A model generated the notes under the pieces. It was given only the letters and a program-made list of their open reading frames with translations, was not told the DNA's origin and made no database searches. Positions 20,955-33,976 of a stretch of DNA of 54,977 nucleotides are shown here, piece by piece. The translations under genes were made by a program, and so were the position numbers. Numbering within the stretch: position 1 is the stretch's first letter; each line of letters opens with the position of its first letter. The DNA lies in contig ML002260.1 in NCBI GenBank assembly GCA_003614675.1, forward strand, positions 1 to 54,977, in the 5' to 3' direction. This stretch comes from Dimargaris cristalligena (lineage: Eukaryota).

Positions 20955-21305
20955 TATATACCTCTTCAGATGTTGGGGGATTTAACCTGGTCTTATTTAA
21001 TTGATTTCGCTGACTATTGCTAATAAACGATACTCCAGATTGCAATGCTATATACCATAATAAACCACTTCTTACTAAAATTCCTCTAGTTAGTGTTAAT
21101 AGATACTTGTTGGCCTGGATAAACTGTTGGATGATTTTTTTTATAAAGAAAAAAAGTTTTTACTTGGCTTTGGTTATACCCTACAGCCAACGAAAGGCCT
21201 GGGTAAATTAGCCAATTGTCTTATTACACATTTATTTTTTAAAAAACATTGACCTTAACCCACCCCAACTTTGCGGACTTGGGCAATTTCGTCGATTCTT
21301 ACAAC

Positions 21306-23726
21306 ATGACTACCAACAGTCGGCGCCCCAAGTCGCTGAATAAATCCCTCACCCGGGGCTGGAATGTCAAAGCACCCATCACTACCAAAGCCACGGTGGA
21401 CCCTGCCCCCGAGGACCCCATCGCCACCAGCGCTGAATCGGATCCGTATAGTTCCCCTGCCGCGCCCCGTAGCGCTGGCATTCGCTTCCACCAGATAGTC
21501 CCGGCCGATTCCAACCCCGAGCCGACCTACCATCGGGTGCCCATGCCCTCGTCCAAGAAAAAAATCAACCAAGCTTCCCCCGAACCTGCCGGTGTATCGC
21601 CAACCCCTGCGTCTGCCCCGGGTACCAACACGGATGCCGCTGCCAAACGGCCGCGGGGGGCGACCGGTCCGGACGAATCCGATAAGCGGAAGAAGGCCGC
21701 CACGGGTTCGAGTAGTGGTAGTCGCAAGGGAACGGTTCTGGTCGAACCCACCGTACGGCTCGCCGATGTGGGCGGGGTAGACGCCTGTATCGAAGAAGTT
21801 TTGGAGCAAATTGCCATGCCCCTGCTCCACCCGGAAATTTACCTCCACACCGGAGTGCAGCCCCCGCGGGGCATTCTGCTGCACGGGCCCCCGGGCTGCG
21901 GGAAAACTCTGCTGGCCAACGCCATTGCCGGAGAACTACGCGTGCCCTTCCTTCAAATTTCGGCTCCCTCCGTGGTCTCCGGCATGTCCGGGGAGTCGGA
22001 AAAGAAAATCCGCGAAGTATTCGCCGAGGCCCGGTCCCTGGCCCCCTGTCTAATGTTCATTGACGAGATTGACGCCATTACCCCCAAGCGGGAAACCGCC
22101 CAGCGGGAAATGGAACGCCGTATCGTGGCCCAACTTCTCACTTGCTTAGACGATTTGTCCTGGGATAAAACCGACTACAAACCCGTGTTGATTATCGGGG
22201 CGACCAATCGGGCCGATGCCTTGGACCCCGCCCTCCGCCGCGCCGGTCGGTTCGATCGCGAAATCAGTATGGTGGTGCCCGACGAGACCGCCCGCGAGAG
22301 CATTCTACGGGTCCAGTGCGCCAAACTGCGCATATCCGGCGATTTCGATTTCCGTGACTTGGCGAAAAAGACCCCCGGGTATGTCGGGGCCGATCTCAAC
22401 GCCTTGACCAGTGCCGCCGGTATGATTGCGGTCAAGCGTATTTTCCGGTTGTTATCAGAGACTATGGAGCTCCAAACCGCCATGGAACCGGAGAGCACCT
22501 CCATAGCTGACCTGACCGCCGAGCTGGAATCCGATATGACCATGGATGGGGATTCCCAGGATGAAGCCCTCGAGGAGGATTCCATTAATGCCGCCGTCAA
22601 GGAGGTCGTCAAGGAAACGCCGGCCACCCCGCTGACCTCCTTCCTCGACGGTTTCGACTCTTTAACTGTCAACGACAAAGTTCAGTCTATTTCCGCCTTT
22701 TTGCGGGCCCACCCGGGACCTCTTACCCCCGCGGAATTGGCCCCGCTCTCCATTACCCCTATTGACTTTGAGGAGGCCCTAAAGAAGGTCCAGCCCTCAT
22801 CCAAACGCGAGGGCTTCGCGACTGTGCCGGATGTGTCGTGGGCCGACATTGGGGCCCTGGCCCATGTGCGCGACGAACTCCGGATGGCGGTGGTCGAGCC
22901 CATTCGGCACCCGGAGTATTTTGCCAGTGTGGGTATCACGGCCCCGGCCGGGGTTCTCCTGTGGGGACCCCCCGGGTGTGGTAAGACCCTGCTGGCCAAA
23001 GCGGTGGCCAACGAAAGTCACACCAATTTCATTTCCGTCAAGGGTCCGGAATTACTCAATAAATACGTGGGGGAGAGTGAACGGGCGGTGCGCCAGGTTT
23101 TCGCCCGGGCCAAGGCCTCGTCCCCCTGCGTGGTGTTCTTTGACGAACTGGATGCCCTCTGCGGTCGGCGAGATGAAAATCAATCCGAAGCCAGCGCCCG
23201 GGTGGTTAACACGCTACTTACCGAATTAGATGGTATGGAAACGCGGAAGCAAGTTTTTATTATTGCCGCCACGAATCGTCCCGACATGATCGATCCCGCC
23301 ATGCTGCGGCCCGGTCGACTGGACAAGCTGCTCTACGTCGAACTTCCGACCGCCCCCGAACGACTGGAAATCCTGCGCACGTTGACCCGGAAGACCCCCA
23401 TGGAACCCGGTCGCGTTGATTTAGAAGCAGTGGCCCACCACCCCAGCTGCGAGGGCCTGAGTGGGGCCGATTTGGCCTCCCTGGTGCGTGAAGCCGCTGT
23501 GTCCGCACTACGGGAAACTATCTACGTTCTCCCACCGCCGGAGGCGGGTGATACGACTACCACTGGTGGGCTTTCCGCCCCTGGGCCTAATATGTCCTTT
23601 GGCAAGCCTATTCGTATCGTCCAGCAGCACTTTGAAACCGCCTTCACCAAGGTATCCCCTAGTGTATCCCAATCCGATCGCGCCAGCTACCAACGGTTGC
23701 GACAAAAGTTCGGCCTGCACAACTAA
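21306..23726 (+). CDS. RIX7: Type II AAA-ATPase Rix7/NVL (60S biogenesis), intronless
   Basis: Two AAA modules (GPPGCGKT twice; FIDEIDAI and FFDELDAL). Family-specific VSGMSGESEKKIR, TPKRETAQREMERRIVAQLLTC and VQPSSKREGFATVPDVSW. Confidence 0.95.
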   Translation: MTTNSRRPKSLNKSLTRGWNVKAPITTKATVDPAPEDPIATSAESDPYSSPAAPRSAGIRFHQIVPADSNPEPTYHRVPMPSSKKKINQASPEPAGVSPTPASAPGTNTDAAAKRPRGATGPDESDKRKKAATGSSSGSRKGTVLVEPTVRLADVGGVDACIEEVLEQIAMPLLHPEIYLHTGVQPPRGILLHGPPGCGKTLLANAIAGELRVPFLQISAPSVVSGMSGESEKKIREVFAEARSLAPCLMFIDEIDAITPKRETAQREMERRIVAQLLTCLDDLSWDKTDYKPVLIIGATNRADALDPALRRAGRFDREISMVVPDETARESILRVQCAKLRISGDFDFRDLAKKTPGYVGADLNALTSAAGMIAVKRIFRLLSETMELQTAMEPESTSIADLTAELESDMTMDGDSQDEALEEDSINAAVKEVVKETPATPLTSFLDGFDSLTVNDKVQSISAFLRAHPGPLTPAELAPLSITPIDFEEALKKVQPSSKREGFATVPDVSWADIGALAHVRDELRMAVVEPIRHPEYFASVGITAPAGVLLWGPPGCGKTLLAKAVANESHTNFISVKGPELLNKYVGESERAVRQVFARAKASSPCVVFFDELDALCGRRDENQSEASARVVNTLLTELDGMETRKQVFIIAATNRPDMIDPAMLRPGRLDKLLYVELPTAPERLEILRTLTRKTPMEPGRVDLEAVAHHPSCEGLSGADLASLVREAAVSALRETIYVLPPPEAGDTTTTGGLSAPGPNMSFGKPIRIVQQHFETAFTKVSPSVSQSDRASYQRLRQKFGLHN

Positions 23727-24009: not shown

Positions 24010-24154
24010 ATATGAGTGAAATTCTACCTAACAATAAGAGGTTTCACATGATATACGTTATGGGGGAATAGATAGGAGATTCATTTGCAACCAGTAGTAT
24101 TTGTCTCATCTAACGGACTATTCGTTATGCGGACTAATTGAACCTCTTCCATAT
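24010..24154. mobile_element. ~145-bp MITE-like element, copy B (just 3' of the NRPS stop codon)
   Basis: ATATGAGTGAAATTC...CAACCAGTAGTATTTGTCTCATCTAACGGACTATTCGTTATGCGGACTAATTGAACCTCTTCCATAT. More diverged than copies A and D. Confidence 0.62.
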
Positions 24155-24217: not shown

Positions 24218-27200
24218 CTATGATTTAAGACCAATTTGTTGGATAAGCACAGCCTGCCAACTATCCAGCAGCTGGTCGACAAACTCCACCGAGTGGGTGT
24301 TGCCGTCATACTCAAACATGATTTGCAGTGATCCGTTAACCGTTTGCGACATGGCATTAAGGGTGTGGAACATGGCTTGATCTCGCGGGAAATTGAGCGG
24401 GTCCCGTTGGGGATCCCAGTCGATGGTCAGGAAGGGCTGCTGATCATCCGGCACGGCGGGGGTCTGATTGTCGAAACTGCCGAAGTAATTAAAGGTCAAG
24501 TCAATGCCCACGGGGCTACGGGCCCACAGGCGACGGGCCTCTTCCGATGCCGACTCACCCTGATCAGCCGCATATTCAATCAGGTTGTATTCAAAACCCC
24601 GGTGAGGGAGTTTAGCCATGGTTCGTCGTACGGCAGTGAGGGAGCGGCGGAAGTCGGACCGGGGTAATTGGAAATGGAGTGGAAAGATAGTGGTAAACCA
24701 ACCTACGGTACGCGTCACATCCAAATCGAGGGCTGGCGACTCGCGGCCGTGGCACTCCATGCGTAAATCGATCATGTCTTGGCCCGTGTGCTGCTCATAC
24801 GCCATGAGAAATCCGGTGAGGAGAGCATCGGCCAGGGAAGATTTAAGGGTCTGGCAAATGTGGGTCGCCAACGACCGCGAAACAGCCGGATCCAGGCTAC
24901 GCTGGCGTAGTCTACGGCACGAGGCCCCCCGGTCGGTTGGTACCCATGTATGAGGATGGGCATCATGGTTGGTATGGGTACGCTGTTGGGGCCAGCTGTC
25001 GGCTGACAGCGTTAAAGCGTGTCGGTTTAGGGTCTCCGCCCACTGGTAGTAGGGAACGGTGGCAACGGGGAGGGGCTTGTTTCGCAGGGCTGCCGCCAGG
25101 TCCTCCCAGATAATCCGCCAGGAGTAGAAGTCCATGATGAGATGGTGGATAATAATCAGCACCCGATCACAGGAGGGAACTACGGAGTGATCGTGAAGTA
25201 AAGCCAGGGCAATCAGTGGGCCTTGGGTCAGATCCAATGAGCCCTGGAGTTGTTCAGTGATATGTTCCAACTGGGCTGACCCGTTGATAGTATGTTCCTG
25301 GGTTAAAATGTCTGTATTAGGTTGGCAAGTGACTCGGGGGATACTCTGGACCCACCTACCATCAACTTGAGAAAACTGGGCGCGAAGCACATCATGGTGA
25401 TCCATGACACTAGCTAAGGCTCTGGTTAGGTCACCCAGTGTTGCCGAGCCATGAAGTCGATACATGAAGGATTGGTTGAAGTAGTGTGGGTTGGGTAGGG
25501 ACTGGCGAAAAAACCCCCGTTGGATGGGGGCAAGGGCTACGGGCCCCGTCCTTTTAGTGGTCGTTAATGGAGTCTCGGGGTTAGATAAGGGATGCTCGGC
25601 CGGAGGAAGTTGCGAGGCAAAATCCTCCAGGGCTGGGTGTTGGTAGAGCAGTTTCAGCGGGACACGAACTCCCAGGATTGATTGCAGTTGGGCTATCATT
25701 TTCATGGCCGAGAGGGAGTCCCCGCCGAGTTCAAAAAACTGGGCGTTGGGGTTTAGATTCTGCGGTTCATTACCCAGCAGAGGGGCCCAGATGTCCCGGA
25801 CCAAAATCATGGGCTCGGTCCACGTTGCGGAGGGTGAAGGAGAAGCAGGCTCGACTAAAGTGGATTGGCTGGGTAAACGCGTCCGATCAATCTTACCATT
25901 GGTATTAACTTCAAATCTCTCCAGTAGAATATACTCCGCGGGTACCATATAGTGGGGCAACTGTTGCCGAAGGTGCTGTTTGAGTTGGGGCAAGTCGACC
26001 GTTAAGGGTTGCACATAGGCCACCAATCGATTATCACGCATCAGCGTGAGGCAGCGTTCCACACTCGGATATTTATGCAGCGCCGTTTCAATTTCTTCGA
26101 GCTCGATTCGAAAGCCGCCCAGTTTGATTTGGTTATCCCGGCGACCCAAGTATTCAATCTCGCCTGAGGGTAGCCAACGGGCCCGATCCCCCGTTTGGTA
26201 GACCCGGCCGGGTCCGAAGGGATTAGGCCGGAATTTGGCCGCTGTTTGTTCGAGCCGGTTGACGTAGCCTGCCGTGACCGTGGGTCCCCCGATCCACAAG
26301 TCCCCCACGACCCCGATCGGGACCAGTCGGTCCTGGGCATCCACAATGTACGCATGAGTGCCGGAGAAGGGCCGACCGATGGAAATGGGTTTACCGACGG
26401 CCAGTCGGGATCCAGTGACGGCGATGGTCGTTTCCGTGGGCCCGTAAAGGTTGAACAGTTCCGCATGGGCCGCCAATTGGGCCAGGAGGGAGTCCGGGAA
26501 GGGTTCGGCCCCGCAAATAATGTACCGCAAACGGGGTAGTTGGTCCAAATCCAGGCGACTGAGGAACGTCGGAGTGGCCACTATGAGATCGCACTGCGCG
26601 GCAGCCGCCACTAGGTCGGAGCCGGGGAAAACCGCTGTGCTACCCCGGCAAAGCGCCAAATAAACCGCATAACCCGCCGCATCAAAGCTCAGGGAAAAGG
26701 ACTGCAGAAGGCGAAGACCCGCGGCAAGTGGGAGGTGAGATTGGGCGGTCATGGCGAAGTGGGTGACATTGGCGCGGGTCACCATGACACCCTTGGGCTG
26801 GCCGGTCGTACCCGAGGTATATAGCACGTAAACGAGGTCTTCGGCCCTCCCCTGGGGCGGGAGATTGGGGTAGGGGCGCGTCAGGGGAATACAGCGGTCC
26901 ACGTACTGATCAATCAGGACCACTGTCTGGCTGAGGTCGGACGGTAAGTACAGGGCTAAGGCGGCCGTGGTTAAAATGAGCGAACAGTCGCTATCTGTGA
27001 AAATATATCGCATTCGCTCTGCCGGAGACTTGGAATCCACGACCACGTACACCCCGCCTGCTTTACTGATGGCCACCAGCAGCGTGACCCCCTCCGGGCT
27101 ATTATCGCAGAAGACGCCCACGTTGGTGCCCAATGTAACCCCCTGGGCCCACCTGAGGTACCAGGCCAGTCGGTTGGCGCGCTGGTTCGCTTCGCTAAAG

Positions 27201-30200
27201 GTCCAGGATTGGCCATCGGCCATAAACACAGTCCGGTGGGGATGCTGTTCCACGACTTGCTCGAAGTATTGGTAAGGCGCCCAGTCTAAATTGACCAAGG
27301 TTTCGGGCGGGTCCCCGGAGGCCAAGTCAAGTAATTGGTCGTGGTTGGCCCATGAAATGTCCTGGAGCTGGGGGTTCTCGGGGCTGCTTGAGAGGCTCAC
27401 CACCGACTGCAGCATAGCATCGAGCTGAAAGGCCAGCTGCTCCACCGCGGCGGTTCCCGCGAAACGGTGCTGGTGTACAATGGTTAGGTCCAATCTCTTC
27501 CCCGCATCTTGAAACTGGACGGAGAGGGGGTATTCAGTGGCTTCGTAGGTTTGGTAGTTGATAAACGGCGAGGTGGGTGAACTGGTTGATGGAGTCGTTG
27601 AATCGGGGGCGGACGAAGCAAAAAGGTCGGCATTGGGGAAGTTCTGGTACACTACAATAGAGTCGAACAATTCTTCCGAACCCCGCAGTCCACACCAATG
27701 TTTAATTTTGGCCAGGCCGGTATTCTCATACTGGGATGAACGAGCACACTGGGTTTGAATTACCACCAGGAATTCAGCCAGGGACCCCGTAGGATTGACT
27801 GTGGCACTTAAAGGAATAGAGTTGATACATGGGCCCACCGTAAATTCGATACCCGGTAAATTGACGTTACGACCGGATACCACAATTCCAATGACGACAT
27901 CAGTGATCTGTTTGTAACGAGCCACCAAAACGCACCACAAGGCGCGCAGAAGAGTCGCTACGGTAATATGAAAATGCCGTGCGCAGGCCCGGACGGAATC
28001 CAGTGAACACTTCAGGCGGTGATCATGGCGTCCGTAGCCTAGGGGGACTTCGGACGGGTTCGTGATCAGTGACATGGCATCACAGGCCTGAGCCCCTGCG
28101 AGCAATTGCTGCCAGTAGACCTTACTCGGCTCAGGGTCGAGATTCGCAATATGTTTAACAAATTCGGGGAACGAGGGGCCAGGGGGCACAAATTCACTAA
28201 GAATACTAGGTGCCAACCCTTCGGCCAGTTGCCGGTAAGAGCCCACTGCATCCTGGAGCACGATGGGGCCGGACCAGCCGTCGATTAGTGCATGGTGAAC
28301 CGACCAAAGCACATGCACCGTTTCGGAATCAATTCGTCGGAGGCTGAATCGCATCAAAGGGTCGAAAGGGGTAAACCCCCGACACCGGTCAGCCCGGCGT
28401 AATTCGGCTTTGCGTTCATTCAGACCCTGTGCAGACGGTTCATTTGACCAGTCAACAAAATCAAAGGGAATGGTTTCATCCGCCACCACCACGCGAAGGG
28501 TCCCCACTGTGGTGAAGGGTAGCTCACTCACAAATCGACTTCTCAGAATGGGGTGCCGAGCGGTCACGGCGGCCCAGCAGCGACGGAACCGATCCAGCGT
28601 GAAGGTGGAATCTTTAATATCCAAGGCGACTTGGACCAGGTAGGCCGAGGGGTCTTGGATGGATTTGAACACGAGCCCCTCCTGCAGGGGGGTGCACAGG
28701 AAAACGTGTTCAACTTGGTGGGAAGGAATGGCCAAGTGGACAATACGCTGGGAGACCACCTCGCGCTCGTCCTTAGTGGCATGCCAGGGCAGTGGGATGT
28801 CGGACAGGTCCAGGGAGGGCGTGGGACCGAGTCGAATAATACGGGCCAAGTGCTGCAAACTGGTTTTCCAGGCGGACAGCAGATGGGGTCGGGTAGACCG
28901 TAGCGTTTGGACGTGCAATATCCGATTGACTGGCATGGGCTGAACAATATAGTAGATCACGGTGGGTATCGAGGACAGGAAAGTGGTGGATGCCTCCCGG
29001 GATAGGGTTAGTTGAAACACCAGCGCCCGGTCTGACAAGTAGGAGTCGGTGGTTTCGTTAAGGTCCCGATTAAGCCGTTCGTGTTGTTTAACCCAGTCCC
29101 ACAGACTCCAAGCGCTGGTCAAGTCGGCAGGGGGAGCTAAGGTGACGAACGGGCAGCCTTCCAACATCAGGTGTTCCAAATCTGGGGGATAGTCCAGTGC
29201 GCCGAAAACAGTTATTGCGGGAGCTTGGCTGTGGTCTCGCGCCGTTGTCAACAGGGAGGCCACTAGCATCTGTAGGGTACTGTATGATGAACTGGGCATT
29301 TGTTGGTCATCGGTAGGCCAGGTAAAAGTGCTGCCCATGATGCGGTCTTCACCTATAGGCTTAGCAGCAGTTGTAAAATTATCGGTCGAGCCCAGGTCGG
29401 GTTGCTGCCAGGCGGGTAAATCGTCGCCCAAGGGGCGCTGTGAATGGCGGCTGAGGTAATACGCAAGAGTGGCCCGTATAATTTGCCAGCTTAATTCCGA
29501 ATTGATGTGCTTGTCGAGGTACACCACAAAGTTAAATCCCCCCAATTCGGTGACACCAATGCCCAGGGCCCAGAGTTGGCCCCGCCGGGCATCGACTTGG
29601 GCCCGTAGGTGATCCCGCTGGCGAGCAGGGTCAAGTAGATTTTCCCAGTACGCGGAGTAAACGGGCGCAAATGTTGGAGTCAAGCAGCGCTGCCAGGTTT
29701 CTAATTGATCGTCCATTTGGTAGGTGGCGAAGAGGGCCGGGTAGAGCCAATAGAGCAGGGCCTGGAAGGAGATGAGATCGCTGGCGTCCATGCTATCCAA
29801 AGGGAGGGGCAGTACACGGTACCCGTCACTAATCGACGACCCCTTTCCGTCGACGGGACTTATGCCGGATGAAAAAATGGGGGGAGAGGGAACTCGGGCT
29901 CGACTAGCGGGACTAGTCAGGGCTCGTGGACGGACAATCGAATGGTGACTCAAGAAATACGCAGCGAGTTCCTGTGGAGTCGGGTGCTGGTACAGGGCAT
30001 GGGATTCGATGGGCCAGCCCGCGTCAGCCAGTAGTCGGACGAGTTTGATGGTTGAAATAGAGTCGCCACCTAACTCAAAGTACGAGGCTTCGACCGTGGC
30101 CGGTCCGTAAACCCGGGCTGTATCGAGGCTGGCAAGGTAAAAATGGGACAGTATGGTTTCGATTAGGGGTCGGGCGGGACTCTCCAGACTCTGGACTAGA

Positions 30201-30301
30201 TACCCAAAGTCCACCTGAGTCAGTGAGCGGCCGTAGCCCCGTACCGGGGAAGGAATAGCCTCAATTAAAGAGCCACTGCTATGGGTACTGTAGATTGACA
30301 T
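24218..30301 (-). CDS. Non-ribosomal peptide synthetase, 2027 aa, intronless; domains T-(degenerate E)-C-A-T-E
   Basis: First T domain: YFELGGDSIS (~30060). C domain: TPLQEGL...HHALIDGWS (~28290). A domain: YTSGTTGQPKG, NLYGPTETT, YQTGD, GRRDNQIKLGGFRIELEEIE, NGKIDR. Second T domain: FFELGGDSLS (~25720). Terminal E domain: LAPIQ, FNQS, HHLIMDFYSWRIIWEDL, ECHGRE, RTVGWFTTIFP, FNYFG. Confidence 0.95.
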   Translation of the reverse strand: MSIYSTHSSGSLIEAIPSPVRGYGRSLTQVDFGYLVQSLESPARPLIETILSHFYLASLDTARVYGPATVEASYFELGGDSISTIKLVRLLADAGWPIESHALYQHPTPQELAAYFLSHHSIVRPRALTSPASRARVPSPPIFSSGISPVDGKGSSISDGYRVLPLPLDSMDASDLISFQALLYWLYPALFATYQMDDQLETWQRCLTPTFAPVYSAYWENLLDPARQRDHLRAQVDARRGQLWALGIGVTELGGFNFVVYLDKHINSELSWQIIRATLAYYLSRHSQRPLGDDLPAWQQPDLGSTDNFTTAAKPIGEDRIMGSTFTWPTDDQQMPSSSYSTLQMLVASLLTTARDHSQAPAITVFGALDYPPDLEHLMLEGCPFVTLAPPADLTSAWSLWDWVKQHERLNRDLNETTDSYLSDRALVFQLTLSREASTTFLSSIPTVIYYIVQPMPVNRILHVQTLRSTRPHLLSAWKTSLQHLARIIRLGPTPSLDLSDIPLPWHATKDEREVVSQRIVHLAIPSHQVEHVFLCTPLQEGLVFKSIQDPSAYLVQVALDIKDSTFTLDRFRRCWAAVTARHPILRSRFVSELPFTTVGTLRVVVADETIPFDFVDWSNEPSAQGLNERKAELRRADRCRGFTPFDPLMRFSLRRIDSETVHVLWSVHHALIDGWSGPIVLQDAVGSYRQLAEGLAPSILSEFVPPGPSFPEFVKHIANLDPEPSKVYWQQLLAGAQACDAMSLITNPSEVPLGYGRHDHRLKCSLDSVRACARHFHITVATLLRALWCVLVARYKQITDVVIGIVVSGRNVNLPGIEFTVGPCINSIPLSATVNPTGSLAEFLVVIQTQCARSSQYENTGLAKIKHWCGLRGSEELFDSIVVYQNFPNADLFASSAPDSTTPSTSSPTSPFINYQTYEATEYPLSVQFQDAGKRLDLTIVHQHRFAGTAAVEQLAFQLDAMLQSVVSLSSSPENPQLQDISWANHDQLLDLASGDPPETLVNLDWAPYQYFEQVVEQHPHRTVFMADGQSWTFSEANQRANRLAWYLRWAQGVTLGTNVGVFCDNSPEGVTLLVAISKAGGVYVVVDSKSPAERMRYIFTDSDCSLILTTAALALYLPSDLSQTVVLIDQYVDRCIPLTRPYPNLPPQGRAEDLVYVLYTSGTTGQPKGVMVTRANVTHFAMTAQSHLPLAAGLRLLQSFSLSFDAAGYAVYLALCRGSTAVFPGSDLVAAAAQCDLIVATPTFLSRLDLDQLPRLRYIICGAEPFPDSLLAQLAAHAELFNLYGPTETTIAVTGSRLAVGKPISIGRPFSGTHAYIVDAQDRLVPIGVVGDLWIGGPTVTAGYVNRLEQTAAKFRPNPFGPGRVYQTGDRARWLPSGEIEYLGRRDNQIKLGGFRIELEEIETALHKYPSVERCLTLMRDNRLVAYVQPLTVDLPQLKQHLRQQLPHYMVPAEYILLERFEVNTNGKIDRTRLPSQSTLVEPASPSPSATWTEPMILVRDIWAPLLGNEPQNLNPNAQFFELGGDSLSAMKMIAQLQSILGVRVPLKLLYQHPALEDFASQLPPAEHPLSNPETPLTTTKRTGPVALAPIQRGFFRQSLPNPHYFNQSFMYRLHGSATLGDLTRALASVMDHHDVLRAQFSQVDGRWVQSIPRVTCQPNTDILTQEHTINGSAQLEHITEQLQGSLDLTQGPLIALALLHDHSVVPSCDRVLIIIHHLIMDFYSWRIIWEDLAAALRNKPLPVATVPYYQWAETLNRHALTLSADSWPQQRTHTNHDAHPHTWVPTDRGASCRRLRQRSLDPAVSRSLATHICQTLKSSLADALLTGFLMAYEQHTGQDMIDLRMECHGRESPALDLDVTRTVGWFTTIFPLHFQLPRSDFRRSLTAVRRTMAKLPHRGFEYNLIEYAADQGESASEEARRLWARSPVGIDLTFNYFGSFDNQTPAVPDDQQPFLTIDWDPQRDPLNFPRDQAMFHTLNAMSQTVNGSLQIMFEYDGNTHSVEFVDQLLDSWQAVLIQQIGLKS

Positions 30302-32543
30302 GGTTAAAACTAGTGCGTGGCTGTTGTCGGATAATTTGGATGATTGAAGTCCGTTATATGAATGATTAATTATACCCCGATAAATACCAAGGTGGAAAAT
30401 CGACTTTTTTTACTTAAATTCGTTAAAGGACTAAAAACCTAAAGATATAACTAGTGTAAGGTTAATGTTGGAAGATTAAATCAAAGGGTAAGCGCAAGTG
30501 CTTTCAGATGTAACTTAAAATAATTATTGAAGAGAGAAAGAACCGACAAGGGGCTAAGTTAGGTGCCCACGGTTGGTTTTATTGAGTTGGATAAAAGCAG
30601 TAATTACGATAGAAGCGATGTCCCGAGTACGGGGAGATACAGTCAAAGGTATAGAAACGGTGGGACGCGGGAAATGAATTTCTAACAGTTATTGCAGGAA
30701 TGACATAGCAGGAGTTAGAGTGGATATCGATAATATATTGCGGAGGAGACTACCTTAGTGTCGTATGCGGTGCGCTTCTTAATAATATATGCTCACCTGG
30801 TGCTCCTTTTAATATATTCACACTTATGATTTATACCGCACTATTAAACAGAAGCAGCTTACACATCATAAGCCAATTGTGAAAACCTACTCCTTAGACC
30901 TTGGGGCACCTAACGCTTCTCACGACTATGCCCGCACAAAGCGACTGAGTTTAAACGTCGGCCATTATCAATCATTGGGATATTCGACCTGTTCCACTGA
31001 CTGGTTATACAATCCATCGTGGGCAGTAGTAAGGGGCCACCAGGGACCATTCATTGAGTCAAAACAACAACAAATTCATTTGTAATTATCCACTACAGCA
31101 AACTGATTCCAATTGATGTAAAGGTTTCGAAAGCAAGGCAGGAGTGGCTCAGAGCTATTAAAGGTCTATTAGCAGAAGATCCAATGCCTTTGGGCAGTGA
31201 TTCGGAATGGGTGAGAATGACAGGAATACCGGTAGGTAAGGGACGTGATGGCTTTCCACTCAGGACCCATCTGCTAACTTGCAAAGGTCCAATGGCGGCT
31301 GATTGAGTGGTATAATGTAGGTTCTGCTCCATCCACCCCCGCCCCTAAGAAATGCAGGTGGACGAGTCCAGGAGATGGTTGGGAGAACTATTCAGTCGCT
31401 CATGCGCGCGTCACACAAGTTATTAAATTCCCTTCGCGGCCAATAAACTCAAGGACATAGTAGGCTTCAAGGAATTTCGATATAGAGGGGGGAGTGATAA
31501 TAGTCCATTGTAGGCATGAATCCACCAACCTTAGATGGCACGCACTCGTCTTTGGCAAAAGTATCCGTTTTAATACGAGACTAGTTTGTATACACGCTTC
31601 CCCCACACTTTAAATTTGCAGAACATCTTCCAAACCTTAGTAAGCAGTATCGAATTTGCCAATATATCTTGGATTGGCTATTGTATACCGGTCGGTATAT
31701 TTTTGGAATAAAATCCTATCTGAACATAGTCAACTAGCCAAATGCCGGGATATAGCTACTAGATCGAGCGTTTATAAGGCTCGTATGTATACAATTAATA
31801 AATAGTATTTGCCGCAAGGGTACCAAGGGTTAGAAATTAATGAATTTACAACATGGATTACTCCTATATTTCTTCTGAGGAGTTTGGGCGGTCCCGGATA
31901 TCCAACCGACTACCTCCACGCCAGTGGGTCGAGGTCACTATCGGCTGGGGTTTATTAGTGATCAAGAGGGTAGATTATCCTGTCTCACAAAAATGGTTCT
32001 TAATCAACATGGGAAACCCTCAGTACAAGGGTATTCAATCTTGAATATAATCTAAATGGTAAACTAGACTAGACCTATATAACCACCAGTAGCACACTTT
32101 TTATAAAATGGGCTATTCGTCATATAAGCTACGCAACTGTCTTAAGCCCCATCTACTGGTGGTAGTTATGCCTCCCCCCTCCCCTCCCTTAGGAAGGCAT
32201 AGTTGTCTCTGAAACTAAAATAAAAAAATTGGAAGCTTTAAGAGGACCCTCCAGCTTAAGGTGTAGTATAATACCAACCCAACGCAACTCGGTTTATATA
32301 CTTTATTGGATACTTCCCAAATCCCATGCCTGTGCATTGCCATCAGAACCCCGCCCCTTACGGCGTAAGGCTTAGAAACGCGAGTGGGAGGGATGCAGGC
32401 TCCTTTTCCGGACGTCCAGGAATCGATTAGGGCGTCCCCTGGCTGACAGAGAGAGAGGGTTATTAGGCGTGTTGGAAGAAAAAAGGTTGAGGTGGGATAT
32501 GGTAGTAATTAAACTGAGGAATAAATTAATAAACGCGGAAAAA

Positions 32544-33071
32544 ATATGGGTGAAATGCGGCCCAGCTGTATAAGGTTTTAAATGATATGTATATGGGATA
32601 ATATAAGGGAGATTTATTTTAAACCAGTAATATTCACTTCATCTTGTAACAATATATGGCTTTAGAGAGCACCTCACTTCGTCCAACGTCAATGCTGGTA
32701 TTAAGATAAAGATTTATTCGAGATATAGGAAAATAATAGGTAAAAATAAGGAAACAAGTAGAAAAACTAGGATGGTAATGGTGTGGAATGTTGGGGGTGA
32801 TGATGATTGCTGTTTTTCAACGTCCACCGAGGACGTTCTTTTATAAGGGATTAATTATCGTTACTGAAAGCGAGACACGGTTATGGTGTGTTGCGGCGGA
32901 GCTGGGATACCCCGGAAGAATGCAAGGCAGCGATGACTCGAGCTACTGAAAGATAGTTAAAGAGACGCGGAGGGACACGTCAATAGTATTATGTGCATTA
33001 GACAAGGGACGTAAAACGTCACACATCCAACGGATTTTTCGTTGTACAGCTTGGTTGAACCTCTTCCATAT
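32544..33071. mobile_element. MITE-like element, copy C, split into two parts (32544-32643 and 33024-33071) by ~380 bp of unrelated sequence
   Basis: Left part ATATGGGTGAAATGCGGCCCAGCTGTATAAGG...AAACCAGTAATATTCACTTCATC. Right part CATCCAACGGATTTTTCGTTGTACAGCTTGGTTGAACCTCTTCCATAT. Together they reconstruct one unit. Confidence 0.6.
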
Positions 33072-33211
33072 GGGTGAAGTTCAGCTTGGTTATATAAGGG
33101 TTTAACTAATATGTGTATGGGAAAATCGGTGAGATGTTTATTTTCAACCAGTAGTATTTGCCTTATCCAATGGATTTTTCGTTATACAGCCTTGCTGAAC
33201 TACTCCCATAT
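33068..33211. mobile_element. ~144-bp MITE-like element, copy D (tandem with copy C, sharing ATAT)
   Basis: ATATGGGTGAAGTTCAGCTTGGTTATATAA...TTATACAGCCTTGCTGAACTACTCCCATAT. Best-preserved terminal inverted repeat of the four. Confidence 0.72.
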
Positions 33212-33976
33212 GCTACTATTTTGAATAAAACATTATTTAATAAGCAGTTGGTTTAGTAGGATGGTATATTTGTAAAAGTAAGGGAAAGGGAAAGATGTAA
33301 ACAGAACACTGCTATCTGTTTGGAAGAGGGCTCCTTGTTTAAGGGGTGTACAATTATCATTTTAAATATACCAAATTACACTCCATATTTCAAATTATTT
33401 TCATACAGTTTTAATAGCATATGGTCACTCTAGCAATCGTGAAAATTTCAATTAGGGAATATAATTCCCAAAGGCAAGGAAATATTCACAATAATTGGTA
33501 TAATTTTAGAGTCCGGTTTTCAGCATCTAAAATAGTAGTTATGCTTTGCTGTCCGTTATAGGTCATTTGCCTTTTCATAAGCCAGCTTTTCCTTAGGCTT
33601 TACGGCGAGTAATTGTAAACAATGGGAACATCTGCTGCGCCATAAATCACGTGATGTGGAACAGAGCCCAACCATCCCCTGCGTATGGGGACTACTTACT
33701 ATACTTGGCTAACCCGATTTTCACCCATACAATTTTGAGAACTCAAAGGAATTAAGGCGCTGGCGGGGCTTTTATATACAACAACAACCCAGCATCCCAA
33801 GGTAGACGGGAACAACATGAGCAAGGTGCTTCAAGTAGCCACTGGCTAACCCCATCCAGAGAAAACGCTCCATTCAGCCCTATATACATAATTTTATTAT
33901 ATCCTAACCCATTTTTTATTACATACTGCGTTACCCAAATCGAGTCTATTGAACCCATCCTCAGTATACTTCCCTC

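Follow-up and report, generated by a model that had tools for sequence, protein, structure and literature searches.

A carrier-first nonribosomal peptide synthetase of Dimargaris cristalligena, probably derived from a longer two-module enzyme

The stretch of Dimargaris cristalligena DNA analysed here (contig ML002260.1, 54,977 bp, referred to as the window) contains a gene of a nonribosomal peptide synthetase (NRPS), whose product is designated P0001. The gene occupies positions 24218..30301 of the minus strand. It is a single uninterrupted open reading frame (ORF) of one exon, which runs from the ATG to a stop codon within that span and encodes 2027 amino acids. The protein is comprised of a carrier (T) domain, a region of about 400 amino acids without a family match (X), and condensation (C), adenylation (A), carrier and epimerization (E) domains, in this order. 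We consider it fairly probable that P0001 is an intact and functional member of the Dimargaritales NRPSs, which descends from an A-T-E-C-A-T-E ancestor by loss of the first A domain and death of the first E domain.

All of the domains are encoded on the minus strand. The N-terminal carrier, T1 (29927..30184, residues 40-125), is matched by the Pfam family PP-binding at residues 69-115 (E 4.1e-10). Its GGDS motif starts at residue 78, its phosphopantetheine serine is residue 81, and there is no A domain in front of it. The C domain (27347..28711, residues 531-985; Pfam Condensation at 531-975) carries the motif HHALIDG at residue 669. The A domain (25862..27289, residues 1005-1480) is matched by AMP-binding at residues 1013-1346 (5.6e-76), by AMP-binding_C and, over the cut-off of that model, by TIGR01733 (6.9e-103); all of its core motifs are present, namely SGTTGQPK at residue 1163, YGPTE, TGD, GRRDNQIK and the A10 lysine. 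The second carrier, T2 (25577..25834, residues 1490-1575; PP-binding at 1501-1563), has GGDS from residue 1526 with the serine at 1529. The protein ends in an E domain (24221..25564, residues 1580-2027), in which HHLIMD at residue 1719 is accompanied by the motifs ECHGRE, RTVGWFT and FNYFG; the Pfam family Condensation matches the final 460 amino acids, which include this domain, with E 9e-45. P0001 thus possesses the core motifs of an A domain, two GGDS carriers and a condensation domain with HHxxxDG, by which an NRPS is recognised, and an open frame of 6.1 kb that contains the full set of NRPS core motifs cannot reasonably be put down to chance.

The beginning of the protein is well delimited. 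The frame upstream of the ATG is open for just 36 codons more, and there is no further ATG in it. A search of the window by tblastn with each domain gave noise alone outside the P0001 ORF, and when the A, C and E profiles were run against the 2143 stop-to-stop segments of the six frames of the window, matches at E < 1 were confined to that ORF. The window therefore has no second NRPS piece detectable by these searches, as the first-pass annotation of this DNA had stated, and no upstream exon with an A domain, which that annotation had named among the findings that would refute its reading, was found by either of them.

The terminal domain is, by its sequence, a true epimerase type. Its best matches among solved structures are the E domains of GrsA (5isw, 2.5e-41), PvdL, TycB (6ta8) and TycA (2xhg), and a part of BacC is likewise matched. 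The E-domain matches range from 1e-36 to 1e-41, whereas those to C domains are at 1e-8 or worse. The alignment with the E domain of GrsA runs from end to end, and the motifs that we take to be HHxxxD, the xHGRE glutamate, RTVGWFT and FNYxG of E domains are kept. The fungal CT domain of TqaA was not matched at E <= 0.001 in the same search of solved structures. A tree of C and E domains was built from 178 domains of 56 proteins (56 of the 120 matches listed, plus the query), with no CT domain among them. All E domains fall in a single clade with 57 members (support 1.0), which includes the terminal domain of P0001. The terminal domain groups with E domains in the tree as in the comparison with structures, and the latter speaks against the CT type.

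The same tree divides the C domains into a clade of 63, which has 43 of the 43 C domains that follow an E domain, and a clade of 58, which has none. The C domain of P0001 sits in the clade of 63. Its best relatives among solved structures, McyB, BacC 480-830, PvdL 559-932, TycB C1 and SrfA-C (1e-33 to 1e-47), are C domains placed after an epimerase. Judged by these comparisons, the internal C domain is of the DCL-like, epimerase-following type. The carriers point in the same direction: GGDS is found in 53/53 carriers that are followed by E and in 15/44 of those followed by C, and T1 and T2 both have GGDS. Pfam found no thioesterase (TE), reductase (R) or other release family in P0001 at E <= 0.01. 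The first-pass annotation, which had described a 6.1-kb intronless ORF that starts with a GGDS carrier, contains one complete C-A-T module, ends in a domain with epimerase motifs and lacks TE, R and fungal CT domains, is borne out on each of these points.

The ten residues of the specificity pocket of the A domain are DAYVIGLIAK in P0001 and DATIAGGIIK in the orthologue P0002 described below. The alignment columns were checked on a surfactin synthetase, for which they returned what we take to be the codes of the Val and Asp domains of that enzyme. The pocket of P0001 retains the acidic residue and the lysine by which an alpha-amino acid is held and is otherwise hydrophobic.

The best match of P0001 is P0002, a protein of 1945 amino acids from Tieghemiomyces parasiticus, with an identity of 42% over 96% of the length (839/1975 aligned positions). 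P0002 has the same domain order and an equivalent start. The identity of the two proteins is 33% in T1, 37% in X (in aligned columns), 42% in C, 52% in A, 42% in T2 and 50% in E. The GGDS motif of T1 (GGDSI), HHxxxDG of the C domain and HHxxxD of the E domain are retained in both. The first 45 residues of P0002 match a profile of the segment that leads from A10 to the linker between A and T domains, and 7/1000 shuffles do as well. Because P0002 keeps the layout, the start and all catalytic motifs, the truncated architecture appears to be old and under selection, and P0001 is probably a working enzyme rather than a decaying fragment. T1 in particular, whose serine is kept in both lineages, is probably still in use and able to take the phosphopantetheine arm.

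Region X (28712..29926, minus strand, residues 126-530) stands at the position of an E domain, between the GGDS carrier T1 and a C domain of the post-E type. It has no Pfam match even at E <= 10, and no HHxxxD occurs between residues 126 and 530, so that the catalytic motif of an E domain is lost. A phmmer search of 1.84 billion representative proteins with X matched P0002 (3.2e-14) and P0122, and nothing else. P0122 is a bacterial repeat protein that is matched through 10 short repeats, and it was rejected as a relative because the match is a repeat artefact. A search of the ESM Atlas with X gave nothing usable (best score 0.84, recognition 1483). When T1 and X together were compared by phmmer with the E-like ends of two other Dimargaritales NRPSs, P0123 and P0138, the matches were limited to the carrier parts. 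AlphaFold2, run on residues 1-530 with an alignment of two sequences, gave a mean pLDDT of 34.2, and even the canonical carrier was poorly modelled.

A likeness to E domains is found at the end of the region. A profile built from the last E helix and the SDFPL-type linker fits the 70 amino acids in front of the C domain with 6.1 bits in P0001, a score that 3/1000 shuffles equal; the corresponding segment of P0002 scores 2.1 bits, with 23/1000 shuffles as good. The X regions of the two proteins differ by large insertions and deletions, and that of P0001 has three low-complexity insertions relative to P0002. With 37% identity in aligned columns, compared to 42-52% for C, A and E, X nevertheless does not look like free-running sequence. 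Since X is preceded by a GGDS carrier and followed by a post-E C domain, and its end weakly matches that of an E domain with the linker, the region probably represents the relic of an E domain that is catalytically dead and is retained as a scaffold without epimerase chemistry. The first-pass annotation had designated this region a first, altered E domain. Its position and the weak match of the last 70 residues agree with that designation, and no match to a whole-domain profile rises above shuffled sequences.

Dimargaritales are obligate parasites of other moulds, and the size of their NRPS sets greatly exceeds that of all other early-diverging fungi. The eukaryote-named proteins among the 120 matches listed for P0001 are P0002, two more proteins of T. 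parasiticus, one of Dispira parvispora and one of the oomycete Aphanomyces; the remaining matches are bacterial or unnamed metagenomic proteins with 24-33% identity. The A, C and E domains of P0001 each pair with those of P0002 (support 1.0). In trees whose sampling of Dimargaritales was limited to four further proteins and which had no NRPS from Dikarya, they fall into eukaryote-only clades of 9 A domains (0.942), 6 C domains (0.999) and 7 E domains (0.947). The nearest paralogous domains belong to the first A-T-E-C unit of P0049 and P0027, and A-T-E-C starts and E or E-like ends occur among the family members P0027, P0049, P0123 and P0138. The composition of the gene (GC content 0.56, GC content at third codon positions, GC3, 0.63, CpG observed/expected 0.88) is like that of its neighbours (0.54-0.60, 0.54-0.71 and 0.89-1.05, respectively). 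The CpG observed/expected ratio is 0.81-0.98 in the five larger domains and 0.70 in the short T2. D. cristalligena has been reported to have 27 NRPS genes, most of them alone on short contigs, which were ascribed to a lineage-specific expansion (PMC6784888), and 25-89 NRPS and NRPS-like proteins were counted in Dimargaritales (PMC9866270). Because its A, C and E domains lie in eukaryote-only clades and its composition is like that of the neighbouring genes, P0001 is placed by sequence within this published expansion, and not as a separate recent import from bacteria.

Some features of the relatives were noted on the way. The oomycete NRPS P0034 (Aphanomyces euteiches, 2792 amino acids) is found inside the A clade of 9 and is sister within the E clade of 7, which could be due to transfer between eukaryotes, a shared donor or contamination. 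In P0027 (residues ~1600-2510) and P0049 (~1740-2780), the stretch that separates a C domain from the following A domain, some 900-1000 residues long, has no match to the A, C or E profiles. The A domains at residue 2513 of P0027 and residue 295 of P0006, a T. parasiticus protein, have glycine in place of the aspartate that binds the amino group (Stachelhaus position 235), which hints at substrates other than alpha-amino acids.

The C-terminal end of P0001 is not peculiar to it. Among the Dimargaritales NRPSs compared, six have a complete C-terminus, and in five of these (P0001, P0002, P0027, P0123 and P0138) the last domain is an E or E-like one; the sixth, P0006, ends after an A domain, and P0049, which is cut off, was excluded from the count. 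An E or E-like end is a family trait of Dimargaritales synthetases. The protein chain stops 2 residues after the E profile in P0001, 5 in P0002 and 7 in P0027. Of the bacterial terminal E domains in the set, 6/9 are followed by a tail of 31-42 amino acids with a TPSD-like motif. This is presumably the docking (COM-type) tail of about 30-40 amino acids with a TPSD-like motif and an acidic helix. A tail of this bacterial style is absent from 3/3 Dimargaritales ends checked (P0001, P0002 and P0027), and its absence, as read from the sequences, argues against bacterial-style docking to a next subunit.

These findings suggest the following course of events. The ancestor would have been a two-module A-T-E-C-A-T-E enzyme, which lost its first A domain and the catalytic residues of its first E domain before the split from the Tieghemiomyces lineage. 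Left over would be the orphan carrier T1, a scaffold X of about 320-400 amino acids and one complete C-A-T-E module. In the present enzyme, T1 would be charged either by the only A domain of the protein or by an adenylating enzyme encoded elsewhere, while the A domain would charge T2 with a hydrophobic alpha-amino acid. The DCL-like C domain would then join the unit bound to T1 to the amino acid bound to T2, and the terminal E domain would invert the C-terminal residue. The dipeptidyl or acyl-aminoacyl product would leave by a route general to the family, the members of which have E or E-like ends and no TE, R or CT domain. Possible routes are cyclization, which would give a diketopiperazine, hydrolysis by a separate enzyme and release catalysed by the E-type domain itself. 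The anatomy, the domain types, the conserved layout and the family membership are thus observed, while the course of events and the working of the enzyme, above all the loading of T1 and the exit of the product, are what we infer.

A number of results weigh against descent from an A-T-E-C-A-T-E enzyme with a dead first E domain. Against the E profile, the X region of P0001 scores 0.8 bits, which 7 of 272 scored shuffles (of 500) equal, and that of P0002 scores -2.1 bits, with 79 of 330 scored shuffles as good. Against the C profile, 38 of 294 shuffles reach the score of X of P0001, and X of P0002 was unscored. The hhalign comparison of X to E domains gave E 0.17, which is not significant; its single local alignment is in register, and the position of HHxxxD reads DK...S in X. 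There is no relic of A10 in the N-terminus of P0001 (385/1000 shuffles are as good). The conservation of the architecture is based on two sequences, with one orthologue known, and the start of P0002 is that of its gene model. The window has no adenylating partner, transporter or hydrolase. Finally, with a dead E domain in front of it, a DCL-type C domain would be offered a donor of the wrong handedness. The absence of an A domain before T1 and the loss of every E motif from X, together with the three low-complexity insertions in X relative to P0002, would also fit a non-functional leftover, that is, a 5'-truncated copy of a longer synthetase which decays slowly and makes no product. We regard this as improbable. 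The frame is open over 6.1 kb and all A, C, T and E core motifs are intact; the layout persists at 42% identity in another genus, where the serine motif of T1 is likewise present and X is still 37% identical in aligned columns; CpG is not depleted and no repeat pair flanks the gene. The first-pass annotation had entertained decay as well, and the retention of layout and motifs by P0002 indicates that the gene is not decaying.

An E end may be taken as a sign that the chain is handed over to another protein, as the first-pass annotation did in one of its two readings, and P0001 could accordingly belong as a single subunit to an assembly line whose genes are unlinked. T1 would then receive its unit in trans, either from a free-standing adenylating enzyme or from a second synthetase with an A domain at its end, and the terminal E domain would pass the epimerized chain to a subunit that starts with a C domain, as happens in bacterial systems. 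A T1 without its own A domain, the E end and a C domain of a type that expects a D-configured donor all fit such a line; in-trans loading of an N-terminal T domain is known in a fungus, where EcdI loads EcdA (PMC4294208), and the family is numerous in each genome, with 27 NRPS genes in D. cristalligena (PMC6784888) and 25-89 NRPS and NRPS-like proteins across Dimargaritales (PMC9866270). P0006, which stops directly after its A domain, was considered as the A-ending partner and rejected: its two paralogues P0123 and P0138 (54% identity) run on with T and an E-like end, so that P0006 itself looks truncated and is no convincing partner for a carrier-first protein. The E end is real, but it is a weak sign of hand-over because it is common among the large Dimargaritales synthetases, including those that have their own first A domain; there is no docking tail behind the terminal E domain and no partner gene within the window. 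A dispersed line is rather unlikely. We give a smaller chance to a fully self-contained enzyme, close to the other reading of the first-pass annotation, in which the only A domain would charge both T1 and T2, X would act only as a strut by which T1 is positioned at the donor side of the C domain, and the terminal E domain would both invert the residue and release the dipeptide, for example as a diketopiperazine with a D-residue. If this were true, the release chemistry would be one not described for E domains. A recent and separate acquisition of a bacterial NRPS fragment is very improbable. The gene has no intron, all but five of the 120 matches listed are bacterial or unnamed metagenomic (24-33% identity), and a separate E domain with a DCL-type C domain is typical of bacteria. 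Against this stand the eukaryote-only clades, in which A, C and E are found with Dimargaritales paralogues (support 0.94-0.999), the orthologue in another genus, a GC content, GC3 and CpG ratio like those of the neighbouring housekeeping genes, and the eukaryotic housekeeping genes on both sides. Of the bacterial origin proposed in the first-pass annotation, the bacterial style of the domain types stands, and a lone acquisition by this gene does not.

P0001 can be compared with several known systems. It shares with the Dimargaritales expansion the eukaryote-only A, C and E clades, in which the Tieghemiomyces and Dispira NRPSs are found, the separate E domain with an epimerase-following C domain, and the E end. 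Like most of the published D. cristalligena genes, it is without a recognisable cluster (PMC6784888). It differs in having one A domain instead of several, in starting with a carrier and in that the E domain behind this carrier is unrecognisable. The passages of PMC6784888 and PMC9866270 that were examined report the numbers of genes and of A domains and a tree of A domains, and no domain architectures were seen in them. The bacterial multi-subunit systems GrsA/GrsB, TycA/TycB and SrfA are represented among the best solved relatives of the E and C domains of P0001 and share with it the T-E-C order and the GGDS carriers. Unlike them, P0001 fuses T, the putative E relic and C in one protein and has no A domain before T1, no docking tail after E and no TE-bearing final subunit in sight.

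Two fungal systems are also of relevance. EcdA, a lipopeptide synthetase that is loaded by the ligase EcdI, likewise begins with a T domain that lacks an A domain of its own and precedes the first C domain; its ligase is encoded within the same cluster, and cyclization of the product is expected of a terminal C domain (PMC4294208). P0001, in contrast, has no ligase in the window, about 400 amino acids between T1 and C, a DCL-like C domain and an E end. MpbA and MpcA of Mortierella alpina are NRPSs of bacterial character from an early-diverging fungus that bring D-amino acids into peptides; they have dual E/C domains and end in a thioesterase (PMC9365243), whereas P0001 has a separate E domain, a DCL-like C domain and no thioesterase. 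In the literature searched, we found no description of a synthetase with the order T, dead E, C-A-T-E and no report that ties a Dimargaritales NRPS gene to a product.

The genes surrounding P0001 are eukaryotic housekeeping genes. On the downstream side, an ATPase with two AAA domains is encoded at 21243-23726 (plus strand). Upstream, the ORF at 34000-34428 (plus strand) contains the Pfam domain PSF3_N, and PSF3 is divergent from the NRPS gene. The first-pass annotation had named RIX7 and PSF3 as the neighbours; the PSF3_N domain agrees with the latter, and the ATPase is consistent with RIX7, an identity judged by its Pfam AAA domains only. Further genes of the window encode a DEAD-box helicase, an SMC hinge protein, an Rpr2 protein, Fcf1, an FHA/BRCT protein, a Grc3/NOL9-like kinase and Rad9, and no tRNA genes are present in the window. 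Rad9 is spread over two ORFs, 51664-52248 and 52386-54113, presumably with an intron between them. Introns thus occur in this genome, yet the 6.1-kb NRPS gene has none.

The NRPS gene and PSF3 are separated by an AT-rich spacer (30302..34140, no strand assigned; GC content about 0.41) without an NRPS-like coding piece, and no remnant of the lost A domain was detectable in it. This spacer of 3.8 kb is without long ORFs, and the other neighbour gaps checked are much smaller (about 490 bp downstream). In DNA contigs from 4 runs, 2 of which are possibly the source of this DNA, the P0001 ORF is identical to the letter, and the two differences found, at 30528 and 30814, are both upstream of it; there is thus no polymorphism by which selection could be measured. 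Two short segments that flank the gene, 24077-24128 and 30546-30692, have a summed contig depth about 10-20x that of the gene body in two of the runs and a still greater excess in the other two, and many contigs end within them. In these respects the segments resemble fragments of high-copy repeats. Flanking repeats were considered as a vehicle for the gene and rejected, as no repeat pair brackets it and the two flanks share none within the window.

With 6.1 kb and no intron, P0001 is the smallest complete-looking Dimargaritales NRPS among those compared, which makes it the most practical one for expression and assay. It is a natural case of an NRPS that has lost an A domain while its orphan carrier is kept under selection, and bears on the extent to which carriers can be loaded by an A domain that is distant or foreign, a question of practical interest in NRPS engineering. 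It also bears on how synthetases that end in E release their products and on what retained dead domains do. P0001 is chiefly of value because no smaller tractable member of the Dimargaritales NRPS family was seen.

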